Below, piece by piece: positions 23,592-64,000 of a stretch of 64,000 nucleotides of DNA. Position numbers and translations under genes: made by a program. The DNA lies in assembly GCA_964350985.1 (NCBI GenBank), contig CAYGLK010000001.1:391698-455697 (forward strand), written 5' to 3'. How positions within the stretch are numbered: position 1 is the stretch's first letter; each line of letters opens with the position of its first letter. The notes below the pieces were generated by a model. The model saw nothing but the letters and a program-made list of their open reading frames with translations, ran no database searches and had not been told where the DNA came from. The stretch comes from an uncultured Candidatus Saccharibacteria bacterium. Lineage in GTDB: Bacteria > Patescibacteriota > Minisyncoccia > Phycocordibacterales > UBA918.

Positions 23592-23619
23592 ATTATACGG
23601 CACCTATATTCTCTGTCAA
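23592..23619 (-). promoter_or_regulatory. Putative sigma70 promoter for groES-groEL (TTGACA-N16-TATAAT)
   Basis: Minus strand reads ttgacagagaatataggtgccgtataat ~95 nt upstream of the groES ATG; no CIRCE inverted repeat found. Confidence 0.5.
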
Positions 23620-23636
23620 AAATTCGCTTTTTAAAT

Positions 23637-24032
23637 TTACTTTCTTGCCACACTCTTATAACGGCGACGACCAAACCAAACATTTAAAGCTGCTGATATT
23701 ACCCTGAGTGCGCGCACTGCTCGAAGAATTCTCAGAGCTTGCGCCAGTTCAGTTGTTAGCGGAATTGATGAAACAAAGTCGAGCCAATTGTGTTTCCAGT
23801 ATTGCTTCTTCGAATACTTAAGATTAAAAAATAATCCGATAATAAAATCCGTCAAAAATACCCAAGCAACGGCTAAGTCCAGATTTTTACTTAATTCAAT
23901 ATATTTATCTTCAGCGTAAGGAGAAACTTCATAAATAAGAAGGGCTACAGTAAAAAGAGCCAAAACGAGCATCAGTAAGGCATACCAAGGATTGCTTTGG
24001 ATTTTGGTAACAAATACTGAAAACTTTTTCAT
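23637..24032 (-). CDS. Small membrane protein with voltage-sensor/ion-transport-like helix
   Basis: Three TM helices and an S4-like LRILRAVRALRVI arginine ladder. Confidence 0.4.
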   Translation of the reverse strand: MKKFSVFVTKIQSNPWYALLMLVLALFTVALLIYEVSPYAEDKYIELSKNLDLAVAWVFLTDFIIGLFFNLKYSKKQYWKHNWLDFVSSIPLTTELAQALRILRAVRALRVISAALNVWFGRRRYKSVARK

Positions 24033-24176
24033 TAACTTAATTATAACTGATCCTATAATTATTTTTTAGATATAAAGAGCATATCCTGATAGTCATACTT
24101 CTATTGATTTTGAGTTTAAATGTACCAAGTCTAGATATCTTGCCACCGGACCCGGTTTCTGATATCATCTCCCGTA

Positions 24177-49604: not shown

Positions 49605-50159
49605 TCACTCAATAGAATAAATAAACTGATACGACTCGTCAAAGATTCGCTCTTGAGTCTTTACCGGTAAAACTTCAGTTAAAATAACCGAGTAATCCCC
49701 AAATACTTGTGGTTCACCTAGAGTTAACGTTAGCTCTCCATGAGCTACTTCTGTTGATAAAATAGTCCTTACTTCTACAGTTCCGGCCCAGATACACTCA
49801 ACATCAATTGGACACCGGCTATCTGAGACAACTTCTTGAGGTGAGATAGTGACGTTCATGATTTTTCCGCTATTACCTAGAGTAACAACAGTCTGCATTT
49901 CATCAACAGACGGCAGCGGACACTCAGAAAAATTACACTCTGGACCACTTCTAGCGACAGACGAACCATCTGGACACATCTTCGCTTCTTCAGTACATCC
50001 GATAGGTTCAGGGACGACATTATCACCCTGTTTCTCTGTATAGATAAGATCATTTATTAGAAAAAAACCCCCGACAAGAATAACGACGACAATAAAGCCT
50101 ATAGTCCTACCGATAAAAAAACTCCTAATATTCATATGGTAATTATAGCAAATAATCAC
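49605..50159 (-). CDS. Membrane-anchored secreted hypothetical protein
   Basis: N-terminal TM, Cys-containing ectodomain. Confidence 0.4.
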   Translation of the reverse strand: MIICYNYHMNIRSFFIGRTIGFIVVVILVGGFFLINDLIYTEKQGDNVVPEPIGCTEEAKMCPDGSSVARSGPECNFSECPLPSVDEMQTVVTLGNSGKIMNVTISPQEVVSDSRCPIDVECIWAGTVEVRTILSTEVAHGELTLTLGEPQVFGDYSVILTEVLPVKTQERIFDESYQFIYSIE

Positions 50160-50611: not shown

Positions 50612-50656
50612 ATAATTTTATAAACATACGTCCATTTTCCTACTCCAACATTGTAA

Positions 50657-50683
50657 GCTGGCTGTATGGGACAATGTTAGAAC
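50657..50683 (-). repeat. Cassette-boundary element copy 1 (gctggctgtatgggacaatgttagaac), overlaps stop of 50683-51009
   Basis: Member of the ~30-bp family with consensus (gene-sense strand) AAAAAGTTCTAACRTCGTCCCATACAGCCAGC. Confidence 0.6.
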
Positions 50684-51009
50684 TATTCTCCATCAGGAAC
50701 CTCATTCAGAACAGCATAATCTACATGAGACACCTTAAGTATATCCTTGACCTCAGTAAATGATATTTCGCCGTATACACTACTCTTTCCCCATACATAG
50801 ATGTTTCTAGATTTACTAACCACCCTTATTCGACCTCCCCCCAACACATTCTCTACTACAATACCAGATTCCTCCATTTCTGTAGTTATATCTTTATGCC
50901 ACTCTACATTTGGATTACCCCACAAAATTAATTGTTCCAGACCGGAAACTTTTGCGACGATATATTTTTGAGTTACTTCTGGAAAAAGTTTTACTGCCTC
51001 AATATTCAT
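50683..51009 (-). CDS. Hypothetical protein (cassette)
   Basis: Intact 108-aa ORF; no domain recognised. Confidence 0.45.
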   Translation of the reverse strand: MNIEAVKLFPEVTQKYIVAKVSGLEQLILWGNPNVEWHKDITTEMEESGIVVENVLGGGRIRVVSKSRNIYVWGKSSVYGEISFTEVKDILKVSHVDYAVLNEVPDGE

Positions 51010-51042
51010 AAATTAATTATACTAAAGCAAGGAATAAGGCTT

Positions 51043-51837: not shown

Positions 51838-51927
51838 GTCTAATTACACTATCAGACTGGAAGTAATTTGCAATTTAAATTAAATTACTCAAATGTTTGA
51901 GGAGTGTTAAAATTGTTAACAACTCAA

Positions 51928-52209
51928 CTACATAGTAATAGTTGGATAGAAATGTTCTGGATTCCGGTTTTGTTCTTCAACCTCCAACAAAGAAAAGCGT
52001 TTCTTCCCTTCACTATTCATTCCTGTAAATCTTTCGATTGAAGTTGAATAAAGTTGTCCATGATCATATAAGGCTCGATAGATAACACGGAATTCATCCC
52101 CGTCATTGTCAGCAAATTTTGCTATATCAACTACTAAGTACTGATTGCCCCGATAGTGTTCGTAAACACGATTTCGCATTACTAAAGTTTCCAGTTTTTT
52201 GTATTCCAT
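51928..52209 (-). CDS. DUF1653-like small protein
   Basis: YEHYRGNQYLVVDIAKFADNDGDEFRVIYRALY pattern; leaderless TATAAT 7 nt before ATG. Confidence 0.55.
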   Translation of the reverse strand: MEYKKLETLVMRNRVYEHYRGNQYLVVDIAKFADNDGDEFRVIYRALYDHGQLYSTSIERFTGMNSEGKKRFSLLEVEEQNRNPEHFYPTITM

Positions 52210-52302
52210 ACTTAAAATTATACCAGCCTATACAGTCTGGAGTAGTGTTGTAACTTTTCTAAGTATACCAAAAAATCAGACTTCGTAAGAAAGTAAATAA
52301 AG

Positions 52303-53022
52303 CTAAATTGCTTTCACGGCCGAGACAATGACATCCATTATGTGACGAAAATGGAATTCGATATCTTCAAATCCAGATTTCTTTAAAGAGTCCCTCTGCT
52401 CTCTTTCAGTAAGTTTGAATTCGTCATCTTCGAGGTAATGATCCCTCCAATGACTTTCGAGTTCAGGGTATCCTTTCTCAGTAAATATCTTAAACGCGTC
52501 AAGCATATCTTGGAGATCTTTTTGATGTAAACTTGAATTATCTCGAGCAATCTTGTCTCCATTTATATAAACCCCTCCAGACAGCATAATATTGCCAATC
52601 CGATCGAAAAGACTTTTCCTATATCCCACAGGAAGATTGTGAATCGTAAAAGCCGAGACAAAGATATTAATGTTATAAATCTCATTCAAAGCATCCAATA
52701 AATCTTTTTCAATGAAAACAACCCTGTCTTCGTATTCCTTAAGATATTCCTTGGCCTGATTCATTAAAGCGGGTTCATTATCAATAGCCAAAACCCTGAC
52801 TCTCTTGTCACTGTCTAAAAGAATCTTTGTAGTTAAACCAGTTCCGCTTCCTCCTTCGTATACATCAATTTGAGTAGAATCATCTGCTTCATACTTGGAC
52901 TGAATATATTTTGCTAAGACATTACCTACCTCTTTCTGAAAAGAGTCATAGTGTGGAACAGCCATATTGAAGAGGTTGTATTCCTGACCTATTGAACCTG
53001 AGAATCTTTGATCGCTTTTCAT
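52303..53022 (-). CDS. Class I SAM-dependent methyltransferase
   Basis: VYEGGSGTGLTTKILL motif I. Confidence 0.6.
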   Translation of the reverse strand: MKSDQRFSGSIGQEYNLFNMAVPHYDSFQKEVGNVLAKYIQSKYEADDSTQIDVYEGGSGTGLTTKILLDSDKRVRVLAIDNEPALMNQAKEYLKEYEDRVVFIEKDLLDALNEIYNINIFVSAFTIHNLPVGYRKSLFDRIGNIMLSGGVYINGDKIARDNSSLHQKDLQDMLDAFKIFTEKGYPELESHWRDHYLEDDEFKLTEREQRDSLKKSGFEDIEFHFRHIMDVIVSAVKAI

Positions 53023-53191
53023 AAATAATATTTGAAGAATGTTAAAAATTATACGATTTATTTTAGATTTGTTTATTCAAGAGCATCTTAACACAATCAG
53101 CTTGTTAGTGAAAAAGTAAATATTAAAATACAAAAACAGCCCGCGAAACGAGTCCGTAGACTGTTCCTGCGAGCTATTGCTCAAATCCATC

Positions 53192-53884
53192 TCACCAACT
53201 CTTCGAGATTCGCATCCCGAATGTTGCATGTTGCCCAGTTTCGCCGGCATACCAGTCGACCAACGAGCCAACCGACACACGGTTGGGTAACTGATAGTCG
53301 ACAGCAACCCTGCCCCAAGCGCCGGTGTACCCATCATGAGTTTGATGACTGACGCCGATGCCAACGGTCGAAGACCAAGGGCTATCGAAATCACGTATCC
53401 AATCCGCACCCGTCCGGATTGACCAGGTCTCGATAAGACCTGTTATGCGGCCACCACCAGCCCAGATCCTGAGTGAATCATTCTCGCTCAGAGTGATAGT
53501 CCTTCCGATTTCGGCCTGTAGCCGAATGATGTCGGAATCGAGGTCAAAATCAGTCGCTGACGGAGTCGGCAGGTCGAAGTAGGCGAAGGAGATCTTCAGA
53601 TCGACTTCTCCGACCTTGGTTCCACAGCCGAGGGAGTAGTCGATTTCATTCCCTTCGTTGCCGAAGTCGATTGCCGACGATGCCCAGAAGTCTGCGAAAC
53701 AGTCTTCTCCGCTGAAAGTTATTCCACTTTGCACGACTGGGTTCTGATCTTGTACAAACCCAAACTCAACGAAAGAATAGTCCGACTTGATGGCGCTGTA
53801 AGCCGTCACTGTCTGACTCTGAGCCTTACCAGCCAAAAAAGAGGCGGTAAGGATGAAAATTACGAAGAACGAGAATCTGTTCAC
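53192..53884 (-). CDS. Outer-membrane beta-barrel-like secreted protein (GC-rich, GTG start)
   Basis: Signal peptide; alternating amphipathic beta-strand pattern; C-terminal aromatic (..SKSW); local GC ~55%; GCAGGAG RBS before GTG. Confidence 0.5.
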   Translation of the reverse strand: MNRFSFFVIFILTASFLAGKAQSQTVTAYSAIKSDYSFVEFGFVQDQNPVVQSGITFSGEDCFADFWASSAIDFGNEGNEIDYSLGCGTKVGEVDLKISFAYFDLPTPSATDFDLDSDIIRLQAEIGRTITLSENDSLRIWAGGGRITGLIETWSIRTGADWIRDFDSPWSSTVGIGVSHQTHDGYTGAWGRVAVDYQLPNRVSVGSLVDWYAGETGQHATFGMRISKSW

Positions 53885-54166
53885 GGTCTACTCCTGCGAT
53901 TAAGGTAAGAACTACTGATCAAACAACGTTTACTATAGAATAATAACCCGTTTTATTCAAATGTCAAGCTTCACTTTCATCTCTTACTGCAGCCTACAAA
54001 AAAACATGCTACATTAGCAATGCTGTGCTGAGGTATGTGTAGCATAGGTGGGAGGCTTTGAAGCAGTTTCGCCAGATTCTGTGGAGCCGACAGTGAAATA
54101 CCAGCCCGCCCTGGACAGCCGGAGCGTCTCTCGAGACGCTCCGTTTTATATTATAAATTGAACTTT

Positions 54167-54194
54167 CTGCATGGGACGATGTTAGAACTTTTTT
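54167..54194 (-). repeat. Cassette-boundary element copy 2 (ctgcatgggacgatgttagaactttttt)
   Basis: Same family as other copies. Confidence 0.6.
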
Positions 54195-54252
54195 ATAAAT
54201 AAAAAGGCTCCCGATCGCTCGGGAACCTCTTGGCACTCCACAGTGCCTGCTA

Positions 54253-54414
54253 TCCTTCGGACTCGTCCTCAACGAGCAAACCAGTTTCCTTATCCACGGA
54301 AAGGATTCTGCCTTCGTCATCAAGGACTGAGTGTGCACGGACACCGAGGCCGGTTTCGAAGGATCCGTCTTCAGCAAGCCCTGGAGGCTTTTGACCAATG
54401 GCATATTCGCTCAT
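54253..54414 (-). CDS. Small GC-rich hypothetical ORF (53 aa) followed by hairpin
   Basis: MSEYAIGQKPPGLAEDGSFETGLGVRAHSVLDDEGRILSVDKETGLLVEDESEG; the overlapping listed ORF 54009-54404 runs through the boundary repeat and is rejected. Confidence 0.3.
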
Positions 54415-54505
54415 TTGAGTTCTTCTTCAGTTTGCGGACGGGATTCATCCAAAAGTATTTTAACACACCTTTACAAAACCGAAAATATCAGTGCTGTAAC
54501 AGATT

Positions 54506-55018
54506 TTAGTTATTTTTAATATATTCTTCTACTGCCAGGACATCCTGCATTTGATACTGATGGTCTGCATCAGCTAGTTCTTTTTTGTAGGCCACTAAGT
54601 CGCGTGGATCCATTAATGAAACTTCTATACCGTTTATCACTACCAACTTATTGGGAAATTTACGAAAGTGATCTTTTGTTTGAAACCATTCTGTTTGTTC
54701 CTTATTGCTCATCCGCAAGGTGTCGATGTCAGTCATATCAATTTCTTGACCAAAGTAATTAAGTGAAAGTGTATTACAATCCCACTTTGCGTTTGAATAG
54801 TGTTTTGGACCAGCGGTTATATATTCCTTAGTTTCTGAGACAATAATTGGAAAGTGTTCACCGGAGATAGAAAAATCTAAATCATTTACAGGCCGACCAG
54901 ATCCATAGATATGAGCAGCAAATCCGCCGCCGATGCGGTACGGAATATTATTTCTATTTAAAATTTCCACAATCCACTTCAGGGCATTTAATGTTTTATC
55001 TTCTAGTTCTATTTTCAT
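54506..55018 (-). CDS. Pol-beta-fold nucleotidyltransferase, lincosamide/aminoglycoside nucleotidyltransferase (Lnu/ANT)-like
   Basis: IGGGFAAHIYGSGRPVNDLDFSI matches the G-x-G...D-x-D NTase motif in a ~170-aa protein like LinB/Lnu enzymes. Confidence 0.55.
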   Translation of the reverse strand: MKIELEDKTLNALKWIVEILNRNNIPYRIGGGFAAHIYGSGRPVNDLDFSISGEHFPIIVSETKEYITAGPKHYSNAKWDCNTLSLNYFGQEIDMTDIDTLRMSNKEQTEWFQTKDHFRKFPNKLVVINGIEVSLMDPRDLVAYKKELADADHQYQMQDVLAVEEYIKNN

Positions 55019-55035
55019 GTTTTGATTATATATTT

Positions 55036-55560
55036 CTAATTCGCAACCACATATTTAGCTGCATCTAGAAGTGTCGGAGAAACATAAGTTACTTTCTCAA
55101 CAATAACTGGAACTGTCGCAGTCTGTAAAAGAATTGTTTTTACTCCGGCGCTGATTCCCGACTTAATGTCTGACTCCCGATCTCCAACCATATATAAATT
55201 TTCTGGCTGTAGATTAAATTCTTTTATTGCTTCCAAAATCATTTTTGGACTTGGTTTTCGACAATCACACATGTCTCCTGGCCCATGTGGACACATGTAA
55301 GTTTTTAAAACCTTAACATCACTTGCCTTGAGTAATTCAAGGACCTTAGTATGAATTCTTTCAAAATCAGAAACAGTAATTCTGCCTTCTGCGATACCTG
55401 CTTGATTAGTTATTAAAATAACTGAAAAATCATGTTGCGCTAGATATGAAAGAGATTCAATGGTATCTGGAAATAATTCTATTTTGTTTTCCGTATCAAC
55501 CCTTTCATCAGCAGGTTCCCTGATAACGGTACCATCACGATCTAAAAAAATTACTTTCAT
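55036..55560 (-). CDS. HAD-IIIA phosphatase, D,D-heptose-1,7-bisphosphate phosphatase (GmhB)-like
   Basis: FLDRDGTV motif I, ITNQ motif II, Zn-site CPHGPGDMCDCRKP, GDRESD motif IV. Confidence 0.75.
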   Translation of the reverse strand: MKVIFLDRDGTVIREPADERVDTENKIELFPDTIESLSYLAQHDFSVILITNQAGIAEGRITVSDFERIHTKVLELLKASDVKVLKTYMCPHGPGDMCDCRKPSPKMILEAIKEFNLQPENLYMVGDRESDIKSGISAGVKTILLQTATVPVIVEKVTYVSPTLLDAAKYVVAN

Positions 55561-55591
55561 GTTCTTATTACATTAACTAATATCATAATCT

Positions 55592-56515
55592 TTATAATAA
55601 ACGAGTCACTCTTACCTTATTCTTTTCATATTTCTCTTTTTGGTTTGTAAATGAAGAAAATGCCAAACTACCCAGGCCGATACATAACTTATAACAAAGC
55701 ATACGCTCAGTATAATCCTTTATTTGTTTTCCATTTTTACTTGAATGCTCTAAATAGGCCGCCTGAAAATCAAATTCACTTGCGGACCAAAAATCCAGCC
55801 AAGCCAAATCAAATAAAAAATCTCCGTACATTGAATTTTCCCAATCAATTACCCCAGTAATTTTTTCACCATCCGACAAAGTGTTATTAAAACCATAATC
55901 TCCATGGATCAAGTAACGGTCTTCTGGGCAATATGAAACTAGTTCAGAGAATTTAGTATATGCAGTGTCCCAAAAATCTTTTTCAAGAAATGATGTCTCA
56001 AAAAGACCTGGTTTTTCTGCTGTACTAATAGTCCTCTTATTTACTGCCAATAACTCTTCCTTCCAACTCTTACTTTCACCACACTGTTCTAGATTCCATT
56101 CTCCATAACCAATTGTATGACTGATATCAATAACATGCACGGCATCGAGGACACTAAAAAGCTCAGGTAACAAACTTGTCATTTCATTGGTTGAAAATTC
56201 AGTCAAAATTTTACCTTTACTCTTTTCCGAAATACAAAATCGCAGCTCGTTATTTATTTTTCCAATGCTATATATTTTAGGTACAGGTAGGATATCTGAA
56301 CCAAAATTCTTAGCCGCATACTCATCTTTTCTAAAACCTAGAGTGTGATGCTTGTTAAGTCGAATAACATATTCGACTTTATTTACAGAAAAACTATATG
56401 CTTGCGACCCCTCACCACCTGAGATTACTTTAAAGTCTGTTACTTTATCCGAAAATGTTTTCTGCAGATATGCAACCACGTCAACTTGATCAACAATTGT
56501 TTTATAGTCGGACAT
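55592..56515 (-). CDS. Aminoglycoside phosphotransferase (APH) / protein-kinase-like family phosphotransferase
   Basis: IHGDYGFNN catalytic loop and VIDWENSMYGDFLFD Mg-binding segment (PF01636-like). Confidence 0.75.
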   Translation of the reverse strand: MSDYKTIVDQVDVVAYLQKTFSDKVTDFKVISGGEGSQAYSFSVNKVEYVIRLNKHHTLGFRKDEYAAKNFGSDILPVPKIYSIGKINNELRFCISEKSKGKILTEFSTNEMTSLLPELFSVLDAVHVIDISHTIGYGEWNLEQCGESKSWKEELLAVNKRTISTAEKPGLFETSFLEKDFWDTAYTKFSELVSYCPEDRYLIHGDYGFNNTLSDGEKITGVIDWENSMYGDFLFDLAWLDFWSASEFDFQAAYLEHSSKNGKQIKDYTERMLCYKLCIGLGSLAFSSFTNQKEKYEKNKVRVTRLL

Positions 56516-56584
56516 AAATTTATTTAAAAAATGACATAGATAATTATAAAAATTCCTTTCCCAGGGATAACAGTAGGTGAGTAA

Positions 56585-57112
56585 CTATGGTTTTTCTGTC
56601 ACGCTAAGGACTTTGGTTAATGTCTCCTCTAAAGTTCCATTCGCATCTATAACTACGGCCCCTAGTTGAGTTAAACTATCTTCAAATGATTTTTTAATTT
56701 CAATAATCCAATCTTGCATCTCTGGGTCTCTAGCAAAATCATGAGTCTCTCTTGTAGAGAGCCTGTGTCGAACATTATCAGGCGAGGCCTGAAGTAGAAT
56801 GACCTTATCGAACAATGGCACAATATCAGTAATGTTTGTTGCTGTTCCACAATAGAAACTAATTCTATCTGTCTCCTCTTCCATAAGTTGAGACAGCTTT
56901 TCTCTACTACAAGCAAAAACTAGATGCTTGATTTGATTAAGATCATTAGTATTCCATTCAGTAATAACTTCTCCTGTTCGCGAATCAGTAGTTTCAAACA
57001 TCCCAGGGATAATTTCAATATCATGTACAGTATAGCCACCCGCCCTTAAGCTTTTTCCAATAGTTGATTTTCCTGTCCCAGACATACCAGTAATTAGAAT
57101 AGTTTTCTTCAT
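56585..57112 (-). CDS. P-loop NTPase (AAA_33/shikimate-kinase-like small kinase)
   Basis: Walker A ITGMSGTGKSTIG at N-terminus; ~175 aa. Confidence 0.6.
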   Translation of the reverse strand: MKKTILITGMSGTGKSTIGKSLRAGGYTVHDIEIIPGMFETTDSRTGEVITEWNTNDLNQIKHLVFACSREKLSQLMEEETDRISFYCGTATNITDIVPLFDKVILLQASPDNVRHRLSTRETHDFARDPEMQDWIIEIKKSFEDSLTQLGAVVIDANGTLEETLTKVLSVTEKP

Positions 57113-57163
57113 ATGTTTAATAGTATCATTTTGTTTTAATATGACAGTTAATTATTTAAGTGA

Positions 57164-57197
57164 CATCTGCCTTTCTGAGACTAAGTTAAGATTTTTA
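57164..57197 (-). repeat. Cassette-boundary element copy (diverged: catctgcctttctgagactaagttaagattttta)
   Basis: ~70% match to family consensus. Confidence 0.45.
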
Positions 57198-57199
57198 TA

Positions 57200-57772
57200 C
57201 TATGACCTCAACTGAAACTTTCGATAAATATCCCAATATCCATCGTCACCTTCCAAAGCTAAACAAACATTATCAATACTTATACTCCTATCAAAAGTTG
57301 CATCGACCAAATGCTCTTTAATTTTTTCAAAGCCCTCCAGAGATAGATCTTTATAAGCAACTGTTATATGTGGATTATAAGGCCAAGGCTGATCATACCA
57401 ACTTGCATGTTCTTTTTTAAGATTATCTTCAAAAAAACTCGCTATCGTACCTAGACTTCCATAATCAAAAGGTTTTATATATACAACATACGGTGAAAAT
57501 CCTAATTTTGCTCCTGGCCAATTATCCATGTATGAATAATCATTAGTTTTAATTTCAGTAACAGGAACTGTATCTAAAAAATTCTGAATTTTTTCACAAA
57601 AAATATCCAGTTGTTCACCTGAAACCTTTAAACCCGAGCCCACAGTAATGTGGGGCGACCAAGCTTTAAGTGAACCTTTTGAGCCAGACAATAAAGATAA
57701 TTCATTTTGAATATCACGAATTTCTTTTGTCATTTCTTTATCAAAATATGAGACAATAGAAAATCTTTTCAT
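57200..57772 (-). CDS. 2H phosphoesterase superfamily protein (LigT / 2'-5' RNA ligase-like)
   Basis: Two H-x-T-x motifs (HITVG and HITVA) at typical spacing. Confidence 0.65.
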   Translation of the reverse strand: MKRFSIVSYFDKEMTKEIRDIQNELSLLSGSKGSLKAWSPHITVGSGLKVSGEQLDIFCEKIQNFLDTVPVTEIKTNDYSYMDNWPGAKLGFSPYVVYIKPFDYGSLGTIASFFEDNLKKEHASWYDQPWPYNPHITVAYKDLSLEGFEKIKEHLVDATFDRSISIDNVCLALEGDDGYWDIYRKFQLRS

Positions 57773-57831
57773 AAGTTAATTATATCAAACATAATCTCAA
57801 ACTTTTCAAGTTGATAAATATAGCTATATTA

Positions 57832-57861
57832 CTGTACTGGAGTGACGTTGGAACGTTTTTA
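57832..57861 (-). repeat. Cassette-boundary element copy (ctgtactggagtgacgttggaacgttttta)
   Basis: Same family. Confidence 0.55.
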
Positions 57862-57871
57862 GGTTAACAAA

Positions 57872-58308
57872 TTATCTAGTAGGGCGATAAATAACACCAT
57901 CTTTCATATTATTTAAAGTTCCTTCAGAGGGTTCAAAAATGTTTTCCGGGAGAGCATCTAGAGAGAACCATTCCCAACGATCGCATTTATGCGGCTCCAT
58001 ATTCTTCGGCTCACCCCCATTATAATGAGCTACCACAGAAACATTCAAGTAATGCTTATCGTCAGACTCTATGTAACGCATTTCATCAAAAACCGAGACT
58101 AGTTCAAAATCAGAAACATCTAAGTCAGTCTCTTCTTTTACTTCACGCTTCGCTGTCTCAAACACTGTTTCGCCAAATTCTAAGTGCCCCCTGGAAATGA
58201 CCACTCCCCTGTACCATGCGAAGAATTACGTAGACCTAAAAGCACTTCATTTTCGGAATTTAGAATAACGACACCAATCCCAACTCTAACATTTGGTTTT
58301 TCTTTCAT
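57872..58308 (-). pseudogene. Nudix hydrolase with -1 frameshift in a G5 tract (~58193-58197)
   Basis: Minus-strand ATG at 58308 encodes MKEKPNVRVGIGVVILNSENEVLLGLRNSSHGTGEWSFPGG then hits TAG; adding one G restores FPGGHLEFGETVFETAKREVKEETDL (Nudix box) continuing into ORF 57872-58204. Confidence 0.6.
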
Positions 58309-58387
58309 AACAACAGTATATCAAATTTGACCGTCCTCTATTGGAGTCTCGAACTTTAGTACGTTGCTAAATATAGCTTAAACTCGT

Positions 58388-58420
58388 TGCTGACTGTCTG
58401 GGACGACGTTAGAATTTTTT
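58388..58420 (-). repeat. Cassette-boundary element copy 3 (tgctgactgtctgggacgacgttagaatttttt)
   Basis: Same family; upstream flank gttgctaaatatagcttaaact also matches the array head at 62760-62780. Confidence 0.6.
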
Positions 58421-58426
58421 ACAACC

Positions 58427-59128
58427 TTAATCAACTTCTGGAACCCAAACCCCTTCTTTATACTTTTGAACAGGATGACCTCCACAAGGAATATCTCCCA
58501 TGAAGAAAACTACATCAATTACAGTCTCACCCGCATTATCATCCCTAGTGTAGTCGTACTTAACAATTTCACCATCTTCACCTTTAGTAGTGATATCCAA
58601 TCTCTTGAGACCATCTTCATCTTCCTCTCGTCGAACAATTTCATACTCGCCCCCACCAACAATTTCTTCAAGTACATTTAATACTTCTCTTTCATTGAGA
58701 ACTTTTTCTGCACTTTTTTCATTTGATTGTGTTTCCTCATTAGCCTGCATTAGTAGAGACACTTCTAATAGTAACTTCTCAGATTCTAACTGACTTCTTT
58801 CCACAGCAGCTTTGACTTCACTTGGTCGCGGATCTAAATCAATATCTAAATCAGCATACTGAGTAATATCTACCCAATTAAGACCTCTCCTTTTAACTTC
58901 TGCCCTAATTTCTTCAAAAGAAGCTGTTTCAGGCAACTCCAATAAATTAGCCATTTTCACAAAATGCCTTCTCTCATACTCTTCATCAATTTCTTCAAAA
59001 GAAGCCGTGTCTGGAAGGGCATATTTACGAGCTTTTAGTAGTCTCATTTCTTCACTCCATTCTATTTCATCTCTATGGTAAGGTAGTTCATTTCTCTTAA
59101 CACCTTCATTTGTCATTTTTTCAGTCAT
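58427..59128 (-). CDS. Hypothetical acidic protein (cassette)
   Basis: Intact 233-aa ORF; internal duplicated LPxTASFEEI segments; leaderless TATACT 6 nt before ATG. Confidence 0.45.
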   Translation of the reverse strand: MTEKMTNEGVKRNELPYHRDEIEWSEEMRLLKARKYALPDTASFEEIDEEYERRHFVKMANLLELPETASFEEIRAEVKRRGLNWVDITQYADLDIDLDPRPSEVKAAVERSQLESEKLLLEVSLLMQANEETQSNEKSAEKVLNEREVLNVLEEIVGGGEYEIVRREEDEDGLKRLDITTKGEDGEIVKYDYTRDDNAGETVIDVVFFMGDIPCGGHPVQKYKEGVWVPEVD

Positions 59129-59207
59129 GTTACAAGTATACCAAAAAATTCTATGGTCCCTATCAGGTACTAAATTTTAGTTTAAAAAATAAGGCTTAAA
59201 TAATTTA

Positions 59208-59237
59208 CTGGCCGTATGGGAATGTTAGAACTTTTTT
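59208..59237 (-). repeat. Cassette-boundary element copy 4 (ctggccgtatgggaatgttagaactttttt)
   Basis: Same family; forms 5' arm of ~100-bp imperfect inverted repeat ending tgatagggaccatagaat near 59150. Confidence 0.6.
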
Positions 59238-59276
59238 AAGTATATGAAAACGCCCTAACCAAGCAGCGCTTTCGGG

Positions 59277-59849
59277 TTAGGGCGTGGTCTCGATGAGACG
59301 AACTACATTGTTGAAGACTTCTTTTTTTGAACCGGCTGGCACTAGATTCAACTGTGGAATCTGCCCAGCAACCTGATCGAACACCATAGAGTCGGCCAAG
59401 CGCCTGACGATAGTTTCGTCTGTCTCTCCCCGGCTCCTGAGACGACGTGTCAGCTCATCAACTCCTGGAGCAACCAGATGAACTGGAATACATCTAACGC
59501 CCCTACCTTGGAACCAATCTGACACCAGCTGGTGGCACTCAGGAATAATGCAAACGAATGCCAGGCCACCTGTCTCAGCTGCCGCCTCAGCAAACTGTGA
59601 CTCAGTGCAACAGTATTGGTGGCCGTGATTAAGGACTTTCCAAATAAATTCCGTGATATCTCTCAGACCTTCCAATGTCTGAAAGTCATAATCGACGTCA
59701 GTTTCATAAGGACGGCGAGGACGAGTGGTAATGCTGCGCACCCTGCCGCCACCGTAGTGAGTCTCCAGAGCTCGTTCCAGGGTTGTTTTACCAACTCCTG
59801 AGGCCCCAGTGATTGTCACAACCTTCTTGATCATTGTCCAGAACTCCAA
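59277..59849 (-). CDS. Guanylate-kinase-like P-loop protein (GC-rich; probable start 59831)
   Basis: ITGASGVGKTTL Walker A then SITTRPRRPYETDVDYDF (GMP-binding TTRxxRxxE..G.DY.F); ~52% GC; GGAG RBS instead of leaderless -10; terminator hairpin cgccctaacc...ggttagggcg after stop. Confidence 0.65.
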   Translation of the reverse strand: MEFWTMIKKVVTITGASGVGKTTLERALETHYGGGRVRSITTRPRRPYETDVDYDFQTLEGLRDITEFIWKVLNHGHQYCCTESQFAEAAAETGGLAFVCIIPECHQLVSDWFQGRGVRCIPVHLVAPGVDELTRRLRSRGETDETIVRRLADSMVFDQVAGQIPQLNLVPAGSKKEVFNNVVRLIETTP

Positions 59850-59933
59850 TGTGTGCTTTCAGCATAAAATCACAGATTAAGTGATTCGTCAATATTAGAA
59901 AATGTGGCCAGCCGTCATTTTTTCAAAAGTTTT

Positions 59934-60524
59934 TTATAAAACAGCCCAAAATACTTTCCATTCAAAATCCCTCAATGTCACTAGCTCCAGTTCTAGGTTA
60001 GTGTTTTCTAAAAGTGAAAGGGCTTGTGGGTTTGGTGGTAAATCTTTGCTTTCAAAATGGCATACAATTCTCAACGGCAAAAGACCAAGTCCTTCACGAA
60101 CCTTACCTCCAGACTCGTCATCATGAAAAGGACTGTACTTACCAATCACATATGCTCCTGCAGAAGATCCGGCAATTGTCTTTCCCTTTAAGTTCTCCCT
60201 AAGGTTATTGTACTTATTTAATGCAGTGAGAAGTCTTGGTGTACTGCCTCCACGCAAGTAAAGTGCGTCTGACTTCTTGAGTTGTTCAATGAAATCATTT
60301 TCATTAGCTAACAAAAAATGCAACTGCTTTCCTTGTGCCTGCTCTTTATGCTTTTTAATATTTTCCTCAAACTTCCCGGCACTATCTTCATCTGTTGAAG
60401 CAAAATGACAAAGTAATATTGTCGCTTGATCTGGCAAATCACGCACAATCTCCTCATAAAAAGTCCGATTTTGTTCATTGTCAGTACCTGTATATCCACC
60501 ATGTAGAATAAACTTAGTTTTCAT
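59934..60524 (-). CDS. Peptidase S51 family (dipeptidase E / cyanophycinase-like)
   Basis: LYLRGGSTPRLL and IAGSSAGA (GxSAG nucleophile) motifs. Confidence 0.7.
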   Translation of the reverse strand: MKTKFILHGGYTGTDNEQNRTFYEEIVRDLPDQATILLCHFASTDEDSAGKFEENIKKHKEQAQGKQLHFLLANENDFIEQLKKSDALYLRGGSTPRLLTALNKYNNLRENLKGKTIAGSSAGAYVIGKYSPFHDDESGGKVREGLGLLPLRIVCHFESKDLPPNPQALSLLENTNLELELVTLRDFEWKVFWAVL

Positions 60525-60549
60525 ATATATATTATATCAAAATATCAAA

Positions 60550-60590
60550 CTGGCTGTTTTGGGACGATGTTAGAGCTTTTAAACTCTAAC
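60550..60590 (-). repeat. Cassette-boundary element copy 5 (ctggctgttttgggacgatgttagagcttttaaactctaac)
   Basis: Same family; contains a local palindrome GTTAGAGC-TTTAAAAG-CTCTAAC. Confidence 0.6.
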
Positions 60591-61133
60591 CTACTCTTGT
60601 ACTGGTCTCACCATCTCAATTACAGGCAACATCCCTTTATATAAAGCAATCTCTGTATCAGTCTTTTTGAAACCATATCTTTCATAAAAACTTATAGCTG
60701 AATCATTAAAACGAAATGCCTCCAAACGAGAATATTTTTCGTGATCTGACCATGACAAAAACTCTTCAATCAGTTTAGGTCCTATTCCCATACCCTTAGC
60801 TTCATTCAGTAGATATATAGCGTCAAGTTCGTTATATGTCTCATGTTTTATTCCATGCATAAAACCAACAATCTCTCCACTTCCATTTCTTACTACTCTA
60901 TAAATTACTTTTTCTGGATTTGCCAAAGCTTCAGCAATCACTTTTCTTCTATAGTCTGTATTAATTAACATCTCTCCACGCATTTCATCGACCATTTCAT
61001 CAGTAAGACCTGACTCTTCACCTACATATGATTCTTTCCAAGACTGAATATGCATCTTAGCTAGCGCTAATTCTTCACCAACTTTTGGTAATTCGATTTT
61101 GAATGACGGGCTATTCTCTATATTACTTTCCAT
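60591..61133 (-). CDS. GNAT family N-acetyltransferase
   Basis: GMGIGPKLIEEFL motif A; typical GNAT length. Confidence 0.75.
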   Translation of the reverse strand: MESNIENSPSFKIELPKVGEELALAKMHIQSWKESYVGEESGLTDEMVDEMRGEMLINTDYRRKVIAEALANPEKVIYRVVRNGSGEIVGFMHGIKHETYNELDAIYLLNEAKGMGIGPKLIEEFLSWSDHEKYSRLEAFRFNDSAISFYERYGFKKTDTEIALYKGMLPVIEMVRPVQE

Positions 61134-61164
61134 GTAGGAAGTATATCAGAGCAAAATATTACTT

Positions 61165-61584
61165 TTATAATGCTTCAAATGCCTTAGAAAGCATAGACCC
61201 CTGTCCTGACTGAAGTACATGGGCAGATTCTAGTGGAATCCAAAAACATTCAAATTTAATACCCCCTTCACTACTTGCCCAACGTTCTGGCAAATCTTCT
61301 GTTGGTTCAGCTAAGAAAAAGTGTCTTTCTTGTATTTCTTTTCTATATGGCGTCATATCATAATCTTGAACACCTAGCTGTTTAATTATTTTAAAACAAC
61401 TATAACCAGTCTCTTCTTGTAGTTCACGCATAGCTGCCACCTCAGGAGATTCGTCTTGTTCAATCGTTCCAGCCGGGACTTGAATACCTACTTCTTCATA
61501 AGAGAAATCAACATGGCGAAACACCAGTAATTTGTTATTACTAATTACATAAACAATTACTTTCTTTTTATGCGCTTTATCCAT
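61165..61584 (-). CDS. Nudix hydrolase
   Basis: Nudix box VPAGTIEQDESPEVAAMRELQEETGY. Confidence 0.8.
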   Translation of the reverse strand: MDKAHKKKVIVYVISNNKLLVFRHVDFSYEEVGIQVPAGTIEQDESPEVAAMRELQEETGYSCFKIIKQLGVQDYDMTPYRKEIQERHFFLAEPTEDLPERWASSEGGIKFECFWIPLESAHVLQSGQGSMLSKAFEAL

Positions 61585-61602
61585 TACCTTAATTATACCA
61601 AA

Positions 61603-61640
61603 CTGGTTTATGCCTATCTGAGACTATGTTTGAACTTTAA
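61603..61640 (-). repeat. Cassette-boundary element copy 6 (diverged; overlaps coding 3' end of 61614-62075)
   Basis: ctggtttatgcctatctgagactatgtttgaacttt; ~75% match to consensus and encodes C-terminal KFKHSLR. Confidence 0.5.
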
Positions 61641-62075
61641 TTTACCAATAGTAGATTTTGTAATTTCTGTAAGCGCTGCCTCAACATCCAGAAAATCCCC
61701 CACCTTTGTTTTTTTGCTTGGGTTACCTTCAAAATATCTTTTGTCGAAATCCAACAAATTATTTTTTAATTCTTCGCTGATTTCACATTCATCTCCTTTT
61801 ATTACAACTAGTATTTTGTGATCAGCTTGATCATCTTCAAAATATTCAACCATTCCGATTGGAACACACTCAACTACTGAACTATGTGTAAGTTCTTTGT
61901 CCGTTATTACATAACAATCTAATTCATCCCCATCTGCAGCCAGAGTGTCCAGAATGTAACCATAGGGGTACGGATAGGTAATATGAAAGTCTACCGTCTT
62001 TTCATAGGCACCTGTTTTTTTATTAAAAACATTCTTTTTTAATGTTTGACTAGTCTGCTCAATAAAAACTTTCAT
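61614..62075 (-). CDS. ppa: Inorganic pyrophosphatase (family I)
   Basis: YPYPYGYILDTLAADGDELDCYVI....VVECVPIGMVEYFEDDQADHKILVV matches the family I motifs (YPxNYGFIP.T...DGDPLDVLV....R.VG....D..G.D.K..AV). Confidence 0.75.
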   Translation of the reverse strand: MKVFIEQTSQTLKKNVFNKKTGAYEKTVDFHITYPYPYGYILDTLAADGDELDCYVITDKELTHSSVVECVPIGMVEYFEDDQADHKILVVIKGDECEISEELKNNLLDFDKRYFEGNPSKKTKVGDFLDVEAALTEITKSTIGKLKFKHSLR

Positions 62076-62152
62076 AATCTGAAGTATACCAAAGTTCTAT
62101 AGTCCCTAACGGATACTAAGTTTTAGATTGAAAAATAAGCCTCTAATATCGA

Positions 62153-62190
62153 GCTAGCTGCATGAGACGACGTTAGAACTTTTTTAATAA
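62153..62190 (-). repeat. Cassette-boundary element copy 7 (gctagctgcatgagacgacgttagaacttttttaataa)
   Basis: Same family; 5' arm of ~100-bp imperfect inverted repeat ending ccgttagggactatagaac at ~62100. Confidence 0.6.
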
Positions 62191-62191
62191 A

Positions 62192-62710
62192 TTAGTCAAT
62201 TCTGTATTCAGCATTTTCTGGTAATGAAATATCTTTAAACTCAAAAGTGACGCCAAGTCTCTTCATCTCTTCTACAGGATTATCAATTCTTTCAATTTCA
62301 ATTGGTTTAGTAGGTTCATTTGAAACCACTTCTAAATTACCTAATCCTTCTTTGTACACAAAAGTATTATCATCAAACTGATATAAATAGCCGCCTTCTC
62401 CATAAAGCACTTGCAGACTAGCTTCTAATGAATCAACCCCAATTATCAATACGGATTTATTATTGTCGTACAGACTGACACCCATACCATAGCTACCCTT
62501 AAAGCCCTCTTTTTTAATAGGCCTCGGATTATCTGTGTACGCTAGGGCAATCCACCTTTCTCGAGTAGCGTGAAATGATTCTTCATCAAAAACAACGACC
62601 GTAACACCCTCTTCATTTTCTTGAGTTCTGACTTGCCTTGATGGTCTAGCTTCTTCAGCATCAAATTTTTCACACGTACCGTGAAAAACTCTATTAGGTA
62701 TTTTTTCCAT
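62192..62710 (-). CDS. Hypothetical protein (first cassette after tRNA-Gln)
   Basis: Intact 172-aa ORF; leaderless TATAAT 6 nt before ATG. Confidence 0.45.
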   Translation of the reverse strand: MEKIPNRVFHGTCEKFDAEEARPSRQVRTQENEEGVTVVVFDEESFHATRERWIALAYTDNPRPIKKEGFKGSYGMGVSLYDNNKSVLIIGVDSLEASLQVLYGEGGYLYQFDDNTFVYKEGLGNLEVVSNEPTKPIEIERIDNPVEEMKRLGVTFEFKDISLPENAEYRID

Positions 62711-62785
62711 GATTAAATTATATCAAATATATTTCTATCAGAGACTCAAACTTTTATATGTTGCTAAATATAGCTAAACTGTGTA

Positions 62786-62804
62786 GCTGCCGATCAGGGA
62801 CTCG
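62786..62804 (-). repeat. 19-nt exact direct repeat of the tRNA-Gln 3' end (gctgccgatcagggactcg); proximal att-like site of the cassette array
   Basis: Identical to 62969-62987 inside/abutting the tRNA; the following sequence (ggtcaggagtcgtttatttaataa) is homologous to the tail of the downstream boundary elements (gacgttagaattttttacaa). Confidence 0.7.
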
Positions 62805-62927
62805 GTCAGGAGTCGTTTATTTAATAATCGTTCCACTCATTTAAATAATACGCTCACTACCCTGGCGGGTCAAACAGTCTCCAGACTGTTTGCTTCCGCC
62901 TTTCTCGTCCCCGATCTCGCAGGCTGA

Positions 62928-62967
62928 GACACTAAAATAGCTAGCAAAAGCTAGCTATTTTAGTGTC
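62928..62967. repeat. Perfect 18-bp-arm palindrome (gacactaaaatagctagc aaaa gctagctattttagtgtc) abutting the tRNA-Gln 3' end
   Basis: Read directly from sequence. Confidence 0.7.
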
Positions 62968-62969
62968 AG

Positions 62970-63040
62970 CTGCCGATCAGGGACTCGAACCCCAATAGCT
63001 GGTACCAGAAACCAGAGTCCTACCATTAGACGAATCGGCA
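62970..63040 (-). tRNA. tRNA-Gln (anticodon CTG)
   Basis: Minus strand folds as TGCCGAT / D-arm GTCT-AATGGTA-GGAC / anticodon arm CTGGT-TTCTGGT-ACCAG / variable CTAT / T-arm TGGGG-TTCGAGT-CCCTG / ATCGGCA + discriminator G; U1-A72 as in bacterial tRNA-Gln. Confidence 0.7.
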
Positions 63041-63087: not shown

Positions 63088-63253
63088 TTACTTGAACAAA
63101 TGAGTATCTAAATCAATGCTTGCATGGATTTATGATACGAATGCAGTTCAAGAATGCTTTGCATACAGGATCAGTACAGGTTGTCATTATTTTATTTCGT
63201 TTCCTCATAAAATGCCAGGCAACCTCCTTCGACAGTTTCCCAAACTGTCTCAG

Positions 63254-63328
63254 CCCCAATAGCTGGTACTAGGTAAATAGTCATGGGATGACTATTTACG
63301 GAGTCCGCTTCAGGACGAATCGGCAATG
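63254..63328 (-). pseudogene. Disrupted second copy of tRNA-Gln (pseudo-tRNA)
   Basis: Shares TGCCGATTCGTC (acceptor/D-stem) and TACCAGCTATTGGGG with the intact tRNA, but anticodon region replaced by ~40 unrelated nt and no T-arm. Confidence 0.5.
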
Positions 63329-63418
63329 TTTTCTTTTGGTCTGCAACACCTTTATTCCACTCAATTTTTCTGTGCTGTGGCAACATATTGCCACAACTGT
63401 AAAAATATTCCAAGGATC

Positions 63419-64000
63419 TTAATCTTTGACTATTTTCCATTCACCTACCCCAGTAGCGTCTTTTAGATATCTAAGGTGGGTGATCTTAGCGTTTTTCATG
63501 AAATAAATTTTAGCTAAGCATTTAAAAGCTGCAAAAATATTCATCGGTTTTTTAGACCGGAGGTGTTGCAAGAATATATTAATAAAAATGGCGTGTGACA
63601 CTATAACCACTCGAGCATCTTGATCGAAGGCTTCCAAGTGAGATCTTGCTTTGGTAACACGATCAACAAAATCTTGGTAACTCTCCCCGTTCTCAACTTT
63701 GTCACCTCTAAACCAACACCAAATAAACCAAAGGGCTTTAACGCCCATATATCTCTCAGCTACTAAAATACTGGGACGGTGCCACTCTTCAAAAATACTG
63801 TCAGTCACAGGTATAACGTCTACACAACACGACATTATGATCCTGGTTGATTCTACAGCTCGTAGCTGGGTACTACTGAACACGTGAGTTGGATCTAAAG
63901 CAGCTATCTTAGGAGCAACCTCTGCAATCTGAGCTTTACCAGTAGCATTGAGTGGTGTGTCATGGTGCTGGTGTCTTCGAGCTACATTTCCATCAGTCTG
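63419..64000 (-). CDS. Histidine phosphatase (phosphoglycerate mutase) superfamily protein; partial (N-terminus beyond window end)
   Basis: Extending the ORF upstream of the listed Met gives ...VARRHQHHDTPLNATGKAQIAEV (RHG-like catalytic motif) and later VVIVSHAIFI. Confidence 0.5.
   Translation of the reverse strand, partial: QTDGNVARRHQHHDTPLNATGKAQIAEVAPKIAALDPTHVFSSTQLRAVESTRIIMSCCVDVIPVTDSIFEEWHRPSILVAERYMGVKALWFIWCWFRGDKVENGESYQDFVDRVTKARSHLEAFDQDARVVIVSHAIFINIFLQHLRSKKPMNIFAAFKCLAKIYFMKNAKITHLRYLKDATGVGEWKIVKD

Follow-up and report, generated by a model that had tools for sequence, protein, structure and literature searches.

In Actinobacteria and Deinococcus-Thermus (the 'group C' genomes of GeneMarkS-2), the -10 hexamer TAnnnT of leaderless genes ends 6-7 nt before the start codon, and this layout, which has no Shine-Dalgarno (SD) sequence, is found genome-wide at a large share of the genes. 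When a sigma70 promoter starts transcription 6-7 nt past its -10 hexamer in such genes, +1 falls on the A of the ATG; a TGn extension can stand in for the -35 element, and mRNAs that begin with 5'-AUG are translated without an SD sequence, the AUG start being required for leaderless translation. The Prochlorococcus tycheposons, which are tRNA-targeted islands, reportedly have an intact tRNA gene at one end and, at internal boundaries, direct repeats of its 3' part that are partly degenerate. In the integron of Vibrio sp. DAT722, deep cassettes are expressed from promoters within the array, one mapped promoter bridging a cassette boundary (PMC2945992), and cassette-borne promoters are therefore already known. 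Here, we describe an array of one-directional single-gene units, or cassettes, which occupies ~50.65-62.8 kb of a 64-kb stretch of DNA (64,000 nt, hereafter the window) of an uncultured Candidatus Saccharibacteria bacterium. The array lies behind a tRNA-Gln gene and comprises 19 co-oriented open reading frames (ORFs), all genes between ~50.6 and 62.8 kb being on the minus strand. An initial annotation, made from the sequence alone, proposed that these cassettes carry their own leaderless promoters. It is found here that the boxes at the cassette starts are probably sigma70-type extended -10 promoters which start transcription at the AUG, and that leaderless expression of this kind is probably the general expression mode of the host.

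Extended -10 boxes at the cassette starts

A TATAAT or TATACT box is present ahead of each of the ten ORFs for which the initial annotation had listed one, exactly as written there, on the minus strand and 6-7 nt before the ATG (Table 1), and in all ten this ATG is the earliest start codon of the ORF after the preceding stop. A TG is found one base upstream of the hexamer at nine of the ten array sites, as compared with 8/19 sites outside the array, and the long form TTTG[AG]-TATA[AC]T is present at 8/10 array sites. When considering the whole window, TATAMT-N5-7-ATG occurs 27 times, against 4.4 +/- 2.2 (maximum 10) in 100 dinucleotide-preserving shuffles, and the start codon is ATG in 33 of the 35 genes with the -10/ATG layout, as it is in all ten listed ORFs. 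A sigma70 scan of the window that requires a -35 hexamer (at least 4/6 matches) recovers 0/10 of these sites and returns 35 matches, where 38.7 are expected. As a set, the ten boxes fit the extended -10 promoter class, with TGn present at nine of them and a recognisable -35 element absent. The TGnTATAAT motif is also seen 25-55 nt upstream of other genes, such as those starting at 21377, 32310, 40998, 53022 and 56515, for which leadered transcripts are expected, and this placement indicates that the motif acts as a promoter element and not as a ribosome-binding site.

None of the ten listed ORFs has GGAG, GAGG or AGGA in the region from -20 to -4, which agrees with the SD-free starts described initially. 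SD-like motifs are found at ~7% of the window starts, at or below the 9.5% background, and are concentrated on GC-rich, apparently foreign ORFs. Two GC-rich cassettes have a GGAG-type ribosome-binding site in place of the -10 box, as had also been noted (AGGAG for 53192-53884 and GGAG for 59277-59834), and a third GC-rich ORF, 54250-54414 (53% GC), has neither an SD sequence nor a -10 box. These three ORFs look like imports from SD-using donors, recent arrivals that are possibly poorly expressed in this host.

The leaderless layout within and outside the array

A relaxed form of the layout, in which at most one mismatch to TATAAT is allowed, A2 and T6 are kept and the spacing to the start is 5-9 nt, is present at 30 of the 75 window genes, as compared with 6.0 (maximum 13) in shuffled upstreams and with 3.3% of non-start ATGs. 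The hexamer position peaks at spacing 6 (17 of the 75 genes, with 5, 3 and 5 genes at spacings 7, 8 and 9), and each of the other positions out to -52 accounts for 0-3 cases. Outside the array, the relaxed layout is found at 19/56 genes.

The 20-nt core of the boundary repeat of the array (AAAGTTCTAACRTCGTCYCA) was searched in one genome per GTDB species. This search matched 63 loci, against ~4 expected by chance, and almost all of them are from metagenome-assembled genomes of Patescibacteria (Paceibacteria/Parcubacteria, Kaiserbacteria, Nomurabacteria, Saccharibacteria and Moranbacteria); with 120 further metagenome loci, they make up the loci L001-L183 referred to below. In the 63 loci, a -10-like hexamer is found 5-9 nt upstream of 106/424 gene starts, 54 of them at spacing 6, as compared with 1.7% of the internal ATGs. 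Two of these loci are syntenic with the 17.6-26 kb region of the window, at ~70% nucleotide identity, and the window is accordingly that of a Patescibacteria bacterium. SD-like motifs are present at 16% of the starts in the 63 loci and at 9.5% of the internal ATGs. About half of the Parcubacteria 16S rRNAs are reported to have no anti-SD motif (PMC9297842).

The initial annotation took the leaderless -10 box as a peculiarity of the cassettes. The same layout is present at ~40% of the other window genes and is common in the 63 other loci, which argues that the leaderless layout, as read from these sequences, is a trait of the lineage and not a speciality of the cassettes. In literature searches, no paper describing leaderless promoters in Patescibacteria was found. 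The layout also bears on gene starts outside the array. The ORFs 49605-50159 and 6310-7047 have GTG and TTG starts in their longest-ORF form, and in each of them an in-frame ATG (at 50135 in the former) is preceded by TGCTATAAT, with gaps of 6 nt and 9 nt, respectively. The real start of ORF 49605-50159 is probably at 50135, and the longest-ORF starts of both ORFs are probably wrong, the genes being shorter and leaderless.

It could also be that the leaderless promoter is a cassette-specific adaptation, carried in one mobile module that frees the cassettes from an integron Pc promoter, and not a host trait. We consider this unlikely. The initial annotation had suggested a comparison of array and non-array genes, with similarly frequent boxes at all genes of the genome as the result that would speak against it, and this is largely what is observed. 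The strict form TATAMT-N5-7-ATG is found at 10/17 ORF starts in the array and at 6/58 outside (p=1e-4), and the TTTGR prefix is present on 8/10 boxes in the array and on 2/20 outside, as the cassette-specific explanation would have it. The relaxed form at spacing 5-9, however, is not significantly enriched (10/17 in the array, 20/58 outside the range initially annotated, p=0.09). It is about as common outside when only genes with an upstream gap of at least 40 nt or a divergent neighbour are considered (7/13 and 15/38, p=0.52), or when in-frame alternative starts are allowed (11/19 and 24/56), and its frequency in the 63 other Patescibacteria loci also speaks against a property of the cassettes. 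What remains array-specific is that the array has the most consensus-like copies of the box.

Pre-ORF modules ahead of the boxes

It had been suggested that the box is part of a single conserved ~50-nt module ahead of each ORF. The 50 nt before the TTTGR-hexamer were compared for the ten cases by local alignment against shuffles (null maximum 23), and the upstreams fall into two module families, a short type and others that are unique. Only four upstream pairs score above the shuffle maximum. The upstreams of 59128 and 62075 align with a score of 55 (type B), those of 62710, 58308 and 57772 align with each other with scores of 43, 42 and 27 (type A), and among the other five upstreams the similarity does not exceed that of shuffles. 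The similarity described initially for 62075, 59128 and 58308 therefore holds for the first two, which are homologous, whereas 58308 groups with 62710 and 57772.

Type A reads AGCTATATTTAGCAAC-N5-AAAGTTYGAGWCYC...TTTGATATAMT and aligns with the 3' part of tRNA-Gln; together with the same promoter and ATG, it precedes unrelated ORFs in L005, L021, L028 and L007. Type B reads GWTAGGGACYATAGAAYTTTGGTATACT, an inverted copy of the boundary arm, and a near-identical copy, including the spacer CAGATT, is present in L009 ahead of a different ORF, right behind its tRNA-Gln. The occurrence of these box-containing modules ahead of unrelated ORFs speaks for the cassette-specific explanation. At 60524 and 61584, the arm directly abuts the promoter, and 61133, 55018 and 52209 have upstreams of their own. 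The promoter is thus part of a repeated boundary module, as had been proposed, for five of the ten cassettes and not for the other five, and this share, together with an arm-to-box distance that varies from 0 to ~120 nt, is at odds with one mobile module as its carrier. Behind homologous arms elsewhere, an ORF with the -10/ATG layout is found within 200 nt in 70/295 cases (4.1% of random windows) and an SD sequence instead in 35. About a third of the classifiable cassettes behind these arms thus use SD, which also counts against a cassette-specific leaderless promoter, and the split implies that the expression signals vary among the host genomes.

Expression of the cassettes

When the boxes are read as host-type promoters, they would function as TGnTAnnnT elements without a usable -35 element, from which the polymerase would start on the A of the ATG or no more than one or two bases away from it. 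The leaderless mRNA would then be translated without an SD sequence, the host presumably making essentially no use of SD, and efficient translation would need an AUG at the 5' end of the transcript or coupling to an upstream ORF. A downstream ORF on a read-through transcript could not recruit ribosomes in such an SD-free host, and expressed units would for this reason carry a start-site promoter first after the boundary, each cassette being its own transcription unit. Almost no intrinsic terminators are found between the AT-rich cassettes, the terminator-like hairpins of the array being located only next to the GC-rich ORFs, and read-through transcripts therefore probably exist too. Promoter activity, transcription start at the AUG and leaderless translation are here predicted from the promoter-like layout. 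The per-cassette, SD-independent transcription proposed initially is retained in this sense, but not as a trait that sets the cassettes apart from the other genes of the host.

Some observations weigh against this reading. The strict consensus and the TTTGR prefix are each ~5-fold enriched in the array, which a purely lineage-wide trait does not explain by itself. Seven array ORFs do not have the -10/ATG layout, two of them having TATAAT 25-27 nt upstream, three being GC-rich and two being others. In types A and B, the box overlaps the conserved module, such that part of the conservation could serve recombination.

It is also conceivable that transcripts reading through from upstream cassettes or from the tRNA-Gln promoter are the main source of cassette mRNA, with the A/T-rich box as an SD-independent translation enhancer that acts on the RNA. 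All units are oriented as the tRNA, terminator-like hairpins are found only beside the GC-rich ORFs, and SD sequences are absent, which agrees with this possibility. It is nevertheless improbable when considering the exact -10 anatomy of the boxes (invariant A2 and T6, a TG one base upstream and a sharp peak at 6 nt), the presence of the same motif 25-55 nt upstream of other genes, and the bidirectional terminator hairpin behind the tRNA.

Boundary arms and the tRNA-Gln anchor

The arm at the cassette boundaries is a repeat of ~35 nt which reads, on the gene strand, AAAAGTTCTAACRTC-GTCCCAnAnnGCCAGC, consisting of AAAGTTCTAACRTC and GTCCC-N7-CAGC. Its second half resembles the T-stem and the acceptor 3' strand of the adjacent tRNA-Gln (GGTTCGAGTCCCTGATCGGCAGC). 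Seven arms of the window are found by profile, and three more degenerate ones by eye (Table 1). The array thus has, as a tRNA-integrated island does, an intact tRNA at one end and direct repeats of its 3' part at the boundaries. An Rfam scan of the window with gathering and permissive thresholds finds only two tRNAs, and nothing on the arms, the modules or the tRNA-adjacent elements. The arm pattern has no match among viral contigs (0 matches), providing no obvious phage attP.

Some further features of this region are as follows. A perfect, bidirectional terminator-like hairpin (62929-62968) is located between the tRNA-Gln and the 20-nt copy of its 3' end, followed by a degenerate copy of that 3' end in antisense orientation (62899-62927) and by a GC-rich stretch before the 20-nt copy. 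The same layout (tRNA, hairpin, element of ~120-190 nt, exact sense copy) is shared by L047, L045 and L089, and 62819-62878 is 90% identical to L040 and L072. The His_Phos_1 gene (63192-63883) upstream of the tRNA-Gln is a conserved neighbour in L017, L040, L042, L045 and L047; here, a frameshift is suggested by its division into two overlapping ORFs, 63419-63883 and 63192-63440. The NUDIX cassette 57872-58308 is frameshifted at a G5 run at ~58190-58200, where frame 0 is open for 42 codons only and the NUDIX box is continued in a different frame, which marks either a pseudogene or a homopolymer sequencing error. No ORF stands behind the orphan TTTTGGTATACT at 52262-52273. A degenerate arm comes next, ahead of the real promoter of ORF 51928-52209; the orphan and the degenerate arm may be the remnant of a lost cassette.

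Table 1. Predicted promoter boxes, pre-ORF modules, boundary arms, GC-rich cassettes and the tRNA anchor of the array
Feature	Position (strand)	Reading	Remarks
Cassette 1, ORF 62192-62710	62708-62726 (-)	TTTGA-TATAAT-ttaatc-ATG	No Pfam family; hexamer-to-ATG span 62708-62722
Inorganic pyrophosphatase cassette 61614-62075	62073-62092 (-)	TTTGG-TATACT-tcagatt-ATG	Hexamer-to-ATG span 62073-62088
NUDIX cassette 61165-61584	61582-61601 (-)	TTTGG-TATAAT-taaggta-ATG	Hexamer-to-ATG span 61582-61597; box abuts degenerate arm 61603-61639
GNAT cassette 60591-61133	61131-61149 (-)	TCTGA-TATACT-tcctac-ATG	Hexamer-to-ATG span 61131-61145
Peptidase S51 cassette 59934-60524	60522-60540 (-)	TTTGA-TATAAT-atatat-ATG	Hexamer-to-ATG span 60522-60536
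ORF 58427-59128	59126-59144 (-)	TTTGG-TATACT-tgtaac-ATG	No Pfam family; hexamer-to-ATG span 59126-59140
Frameshifted NUDIX cassette 57872-58308	58306-58324 (-)	TTTGA-TATACT-gttgtt-ATG	Hexamer-to-ATG span 58306-58320
LigT-like cassette 57200-57772	57770-57788 (-)	TTTGA-TATAAT-taactt-ATG	Hexamer-to-ATG span 57770-57784
ORF 54506-55018	55016-55030 (-)	TATAAT-caaaac-ATG	Without TGn; 17 nt behind the preceding ORF
DUF1653 cassette 51928-52209	52207-52225 (-)	GCTGG-TATAAT-tttaagt-ATG	Hexamer-to-ATG span 52207-52222
Last array gene 50683-51009, Ocnus family	51007-51021 (-)	TATAAT-taattt-ATG	Just beyond the range initially annotated
Kinase cassette 56585-57112	57110-57128 (-)	TGA-TACTAT-taaacat-ATG	Weaker candidate
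Type A pre-ORF module	62717-62775 (-)	AGCTATATTTAGCAAC-N5-AAAGTTTGAGTCTCTGAT...TTTGATATAAT	Degenerate copy of tRNA-Gln 3' part; ends in promoter
Further type A copies	58315-58378, 57779-57825 (-)		
Type B pre-ORF module	62083-62110 (-)	GTTAGGGACTATAGAACTTTGGTATACT	Inverted arm copy; ends in promoter; second copy 59135-59164
Arm closing cassette 1	62151-62185 (-)	AAAAGTTCTAACGTCGTCTCATGCAGCTAGC	Mimic of tRNA 3' end
Degenerate arm	61603-61639 (-)	TAAAGTTCAAACATAGTCTCAGATAGGCATAAACCAG	
Arm	60558-60581 (-)	AAAAGCTCTAACATCGTCCCA...	
Arm	59206-59237 (-)	AAAAAAGTTCTAACATTCCCATACGGCCAG	
Arm	58387-58419 (-)	AAAAAATTCTAACGTCGTCCCAGACAGTCAGC	
Degenerate arm	57832-57860 (-)	AAAAACGTTCCAACGTCACTCCAGTACAG	
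Degenerate arm	57167-57196 (-)	AAAAATCTTAACTTAGTCTCAGAAAGGCAG	
Arm behind terminator of GC-rich cassette	54167-54194 (-)	AAAAGTTCTAACATCGTCCCATGCAG	
Degenerate arm	52226-52258 (-)	AAAAGTTACAACACTACTCCAGACTGTATAGGC	Orphan TTTTGGTATACT ahead at 52262-52273
Last array arm	50656-50684 (-)	(A)TAGTTCTAACATTGTCCCATACAGCCAGC	
GC-rich (51%) kinase cassette	59277-59847 (-)		GGAG 59844-59847, 9 nt before ATG at 59834; no -10 at start
GC-rich (52%) cassette, ORF 53192-53884	53192-53895 (-)		AGGAG 53891-53895, 6 nt before GTG start
Exact 20-nt copy of tRNA-Gln 3' end	62785-62804 (-)	CGAGTCCCTGATCGGCAGCT	In arm position before cassette 1
tRNA-Gln(CTG)	62969-63040 (-)		Array anchor; same orientation as all cassettes

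Related arrays in other genomes

A profile search finds 318 arms in the 183 loci. All multi-arm loci (80/80) are co-oriented, and the arm-to-arm spacing, which corresponds to about one gene, has a median of 625 nt (interquartile range 508-894 nt). In every locus with a tRNA-Gln or tRNA-Val gene, the arms are downstream of it and co-oriented with it, and the arm tail matches the tRNA type, being ..CCAGC behind tRNA-Gln (3' end ..GGCAGC) and ..GTGCAC behind tRNA-Val (3' end ..GCGCAC).

The cassettes have different ranks in different arrays. In L042, the 3' end of tRNA-Gln is immediately followed by TTTGATACAAT-N6-ATG and then by four units of ORF, arm and next promoter. The first cassette of this locus (5447-5812) is the NUDIX cassette that is third here (61165-61584; 61% amino-acid identity), and its start, right behind the tRNA-Gln 3' end in L042, reads TTTGGTATAAT-N7-ATG in the window. 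The peptidase S51 cassette, fifth here (59934-60524), is first in L089 (3336-3921), and a GNAT homologue in L013 starts with TCTGGTATACT-N6-ATG. Related cassettes thus retain the -10/ATG layout in different surroundings. The differing ranks would fit a shuffling of whole cassettes as well as independent insertions, and the units may be mobile. The conserved His_Phos_1 gene upstream and the variable cassettes downstream identify the tRNA as the fixed anchor.

Arms and related elements are also observed at other sites. At the site that is syntenic between 23480-24160 of the window and 2480-3620 of L006, the latter has two GC-rich ORFs separated by an arm with the ..GTGCAC tail, the ORF downstream of the arm being SD-led; the window counterpart is a different, leaderless gene (23637-24032) without an arm. 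Arm-bearing units thus occur away from tRNAs too. Directly behind the GC-rich ORF 53192-53884, 60 nt (53127-53186) are ~90% identical to stretches in L089, L172 and L137, and the L137 copy directly adjoins an arm.

Downstream of tRNA-Ser(GGA), 16635-16776 has a hairpin and then antisense and sense copies of the T-loop/acceptor part of the tRNA, which flank a conserved core composed of a long hairpin and TACTGAAACTGTAAG. Related loci are L022 (3625-3795), L045, L047, L126 and L139, and this type of element is elsewhere also found behind tRNA-Gly and tRNA-Gln, with arms matching the local tRNA. A short stem of this tRNA-adjacent element, the sole part evaluated, has a compensatory change (GAAGC/GCTTC and GAAAC/GTTTC), and no Rfam family matches the element, which may represent a small RNA or serve as an attachment platform. 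Beside the tRNA-Ser, a GC-rich island at 16934-17497 (46% GC in the 2-kb profile) contains overlapping antisense ORFs, 16934-17455 (+) after AGGAGG and 16949-17497 (-) after GAGG/GGAG, with a terminator-like hairpin on the plus strand at ~17517-17548; by these features, it looks like a foreign gene inserted behind the tRNA.

Relation to integrons and tRNA-integrated islands

The initial annotation contrasted the array with classical promoterless integron cassettes. This contrast presupposes an integron, but no integrase is found, the boundaries do not have an attC fold, and the array is anchored at tRNA-Gln. It is therefore necessary to consider whether the array is a classical chromosomal integron, or a CALIN (an attC cluster without a nearby integrase), with intI and Pc outside the window and with the repeats as divergent attC sites. 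The one-directional single-gene organization, the median arm spacing and the uniform orientation of the multi-arm loci are those of an integron; the TTCTAAC of the arm matches the attC R'' core RYYYAAC at 6/7 positions, the type B boundaries are imperfect palindromes, and the same cassette genes are found at differing ranks elsewhere. Still, we regard an integron of this kind as quite improbable. Pfam searches of the window ORFs and regular expressions for the catalytic motif find no tyrosine recombinase in the 64-kb window; Phage_integrase is absent among the window Pfam matches listed (the best 25 of 60 families), and none is present in the ten fully scanned ORFs of 280-375 aa. The 5' end of the array meets tRNA-Gln, with the His_Phos_1 gene beyond it, and not intI/attI. 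In the 1.1 Mb around the 318 arms, where 88 mid-sized ORFs were scanned with Pfam and the whole sequence with regular expressions for the catalytic motif, there is one Xer-like ORF, in L157, on the other strand and 2.6 kb from an arm. A GTTRRRY-like R' partner is found at one window boundary only (GTTAGGG, 62104-62110), being absent at the others and in L042.

The predicted folds lead to the same view. The minimum free energies of the single-stranded boundaries are -6 to -8 kcal/mol for those of 95-107 nt and -3.9 kcal/mol for the one of 77 nt, with z values of -0.8 to +0.2 against shuffles, and three of these boundaries, which were folded as either strand, gave the same result each time. A lower value, z=-2.3, is seen for the short 60532-60600 hairpin only. 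Moreover, the arm tail co-varies with the neighbouring tRNA, unlike attC sites. The comparison with a tRNA-integrated island is incomplete as well: at the tRNA-proximal end, no tyrosine integrase is found in the window or in the 183 loci, save for the non-adjacent Xer-like ORF in L157. The array resembles both an integron and a tandem build-up at a tRNA, and defining features of both fail. Literature searches for integrons and genomic islands in the candidate phyla radiation (CPR)/Patescibacteria found nothing specific.

That the TATAMT boxes are not promoters but the outer end of an imperfect inverted repeat in a recombination site, near the ATG only incidentally, is hardly credible, since identical boxes stand at the same spacing before housekeeping genes without a nearby arm, the box-ATG spacing is tight (6-7 nt) and the box-arm spacing variable, and most left arms have no mirrored TATAC, even though in type B the inverted arm and the box are contiguous (TAGAACTTTGG-TATACT), a 9-11 bp terminal stem AAAGTTCTA/TAGAACTTT is present in the predicted fold (the long-element folds being no better than shuffles) and one left arm is preceded by ATATACTTAAAAAAG.

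Implications and comparison with known systems

The promoters look ordinary, being an example of the known leaderless extended -10 kind, and the seemingly new part is the tRNA-anchored cassette system. We tentatively propose, while holding the proposal to be somewhat less than an even chance, that Patescibacteria have an undescribed integron-like system, in which single genes, each with its own leaderless extended -10 promoter and closed by a ~35-nt site (AAAGTTCTAACRTC and a mimic of the tRNA T-arm/acceptor 3' strand), would be stacked one way behind the matching tRNA (Gln or Val) by a recombinase encoded elsewhere. If this proposal is correct, the leaderless promoter of each cassette would allow expression without a platform promoter and without SD-dependent translation. 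The ~35-nt repeat is present in at least 183 loci across Saccharibacteria, Paceibacteria, Kaiserbacteria, Nomurabacteria and Moranbacteria, and if the units are mobile, they would be among the main routes by which genes are exchanged in Patescibacteria, a phylum with poorly known mobile elements. A rule would also follow for acquired genes: where SD is not used, expression of such a gene would require a start-site promoter, either its own or one upstream of its landing site. The three GC-rich ORFs, as recent and possibly poorly expressed arrivals, are consistent with this rule. For annotation, gene callers and ribosome-binding-site models for Patescibacteria should expect a -10 box and not an SD sequence, and the box can be used to correct start codons.

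The leaderless genes of Actinobacteria and Deinococcus-Thermus are similar in the spacing of the hexamer, in the absence of SD and in a layout that is spread over many genes; the genes described here differ in having a Patescibacteria host and an extended -10 element (TGn) without a recognisable -35. In common with the integron of Vibrio sp. DAT722, promoters are present within the array in place of one platform promoter (PMC2945992). The promoters of the Vibrio array, however, are diverse and SD-led, and most of its cassettes are promoterless (PMC2945992), whereas here more than half of the units have a near-identical leaderless extended -10 box, and an integron is not demonstrable. With integron cassettes and attC sites in general, the array shares the co-oriented single-gene units of 0.5-0.9 kb, a conserved repeat common to distant genomes and a variable order. 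Unlike integrons, it has no IntI, no stable attC hairpin and no R' core, its repeats are mimics of the 3' end of the adjoining tRNA, tRNA genes (Gln, Val) serve as anchors of the arrays, and the units have their own promoters. As in tRNA-targeted islands, including the tycheposons, there is an intact tRNA at the end with copies of its 3' part, which suggests tandem build-up at one hot spot. The array differs from such islands in its single-gene units, in the absence of an integrase in cis and in the conserved non-tRNA extension (AAAGTTCTAACRTC), which is identical across Patescibacteria classes.

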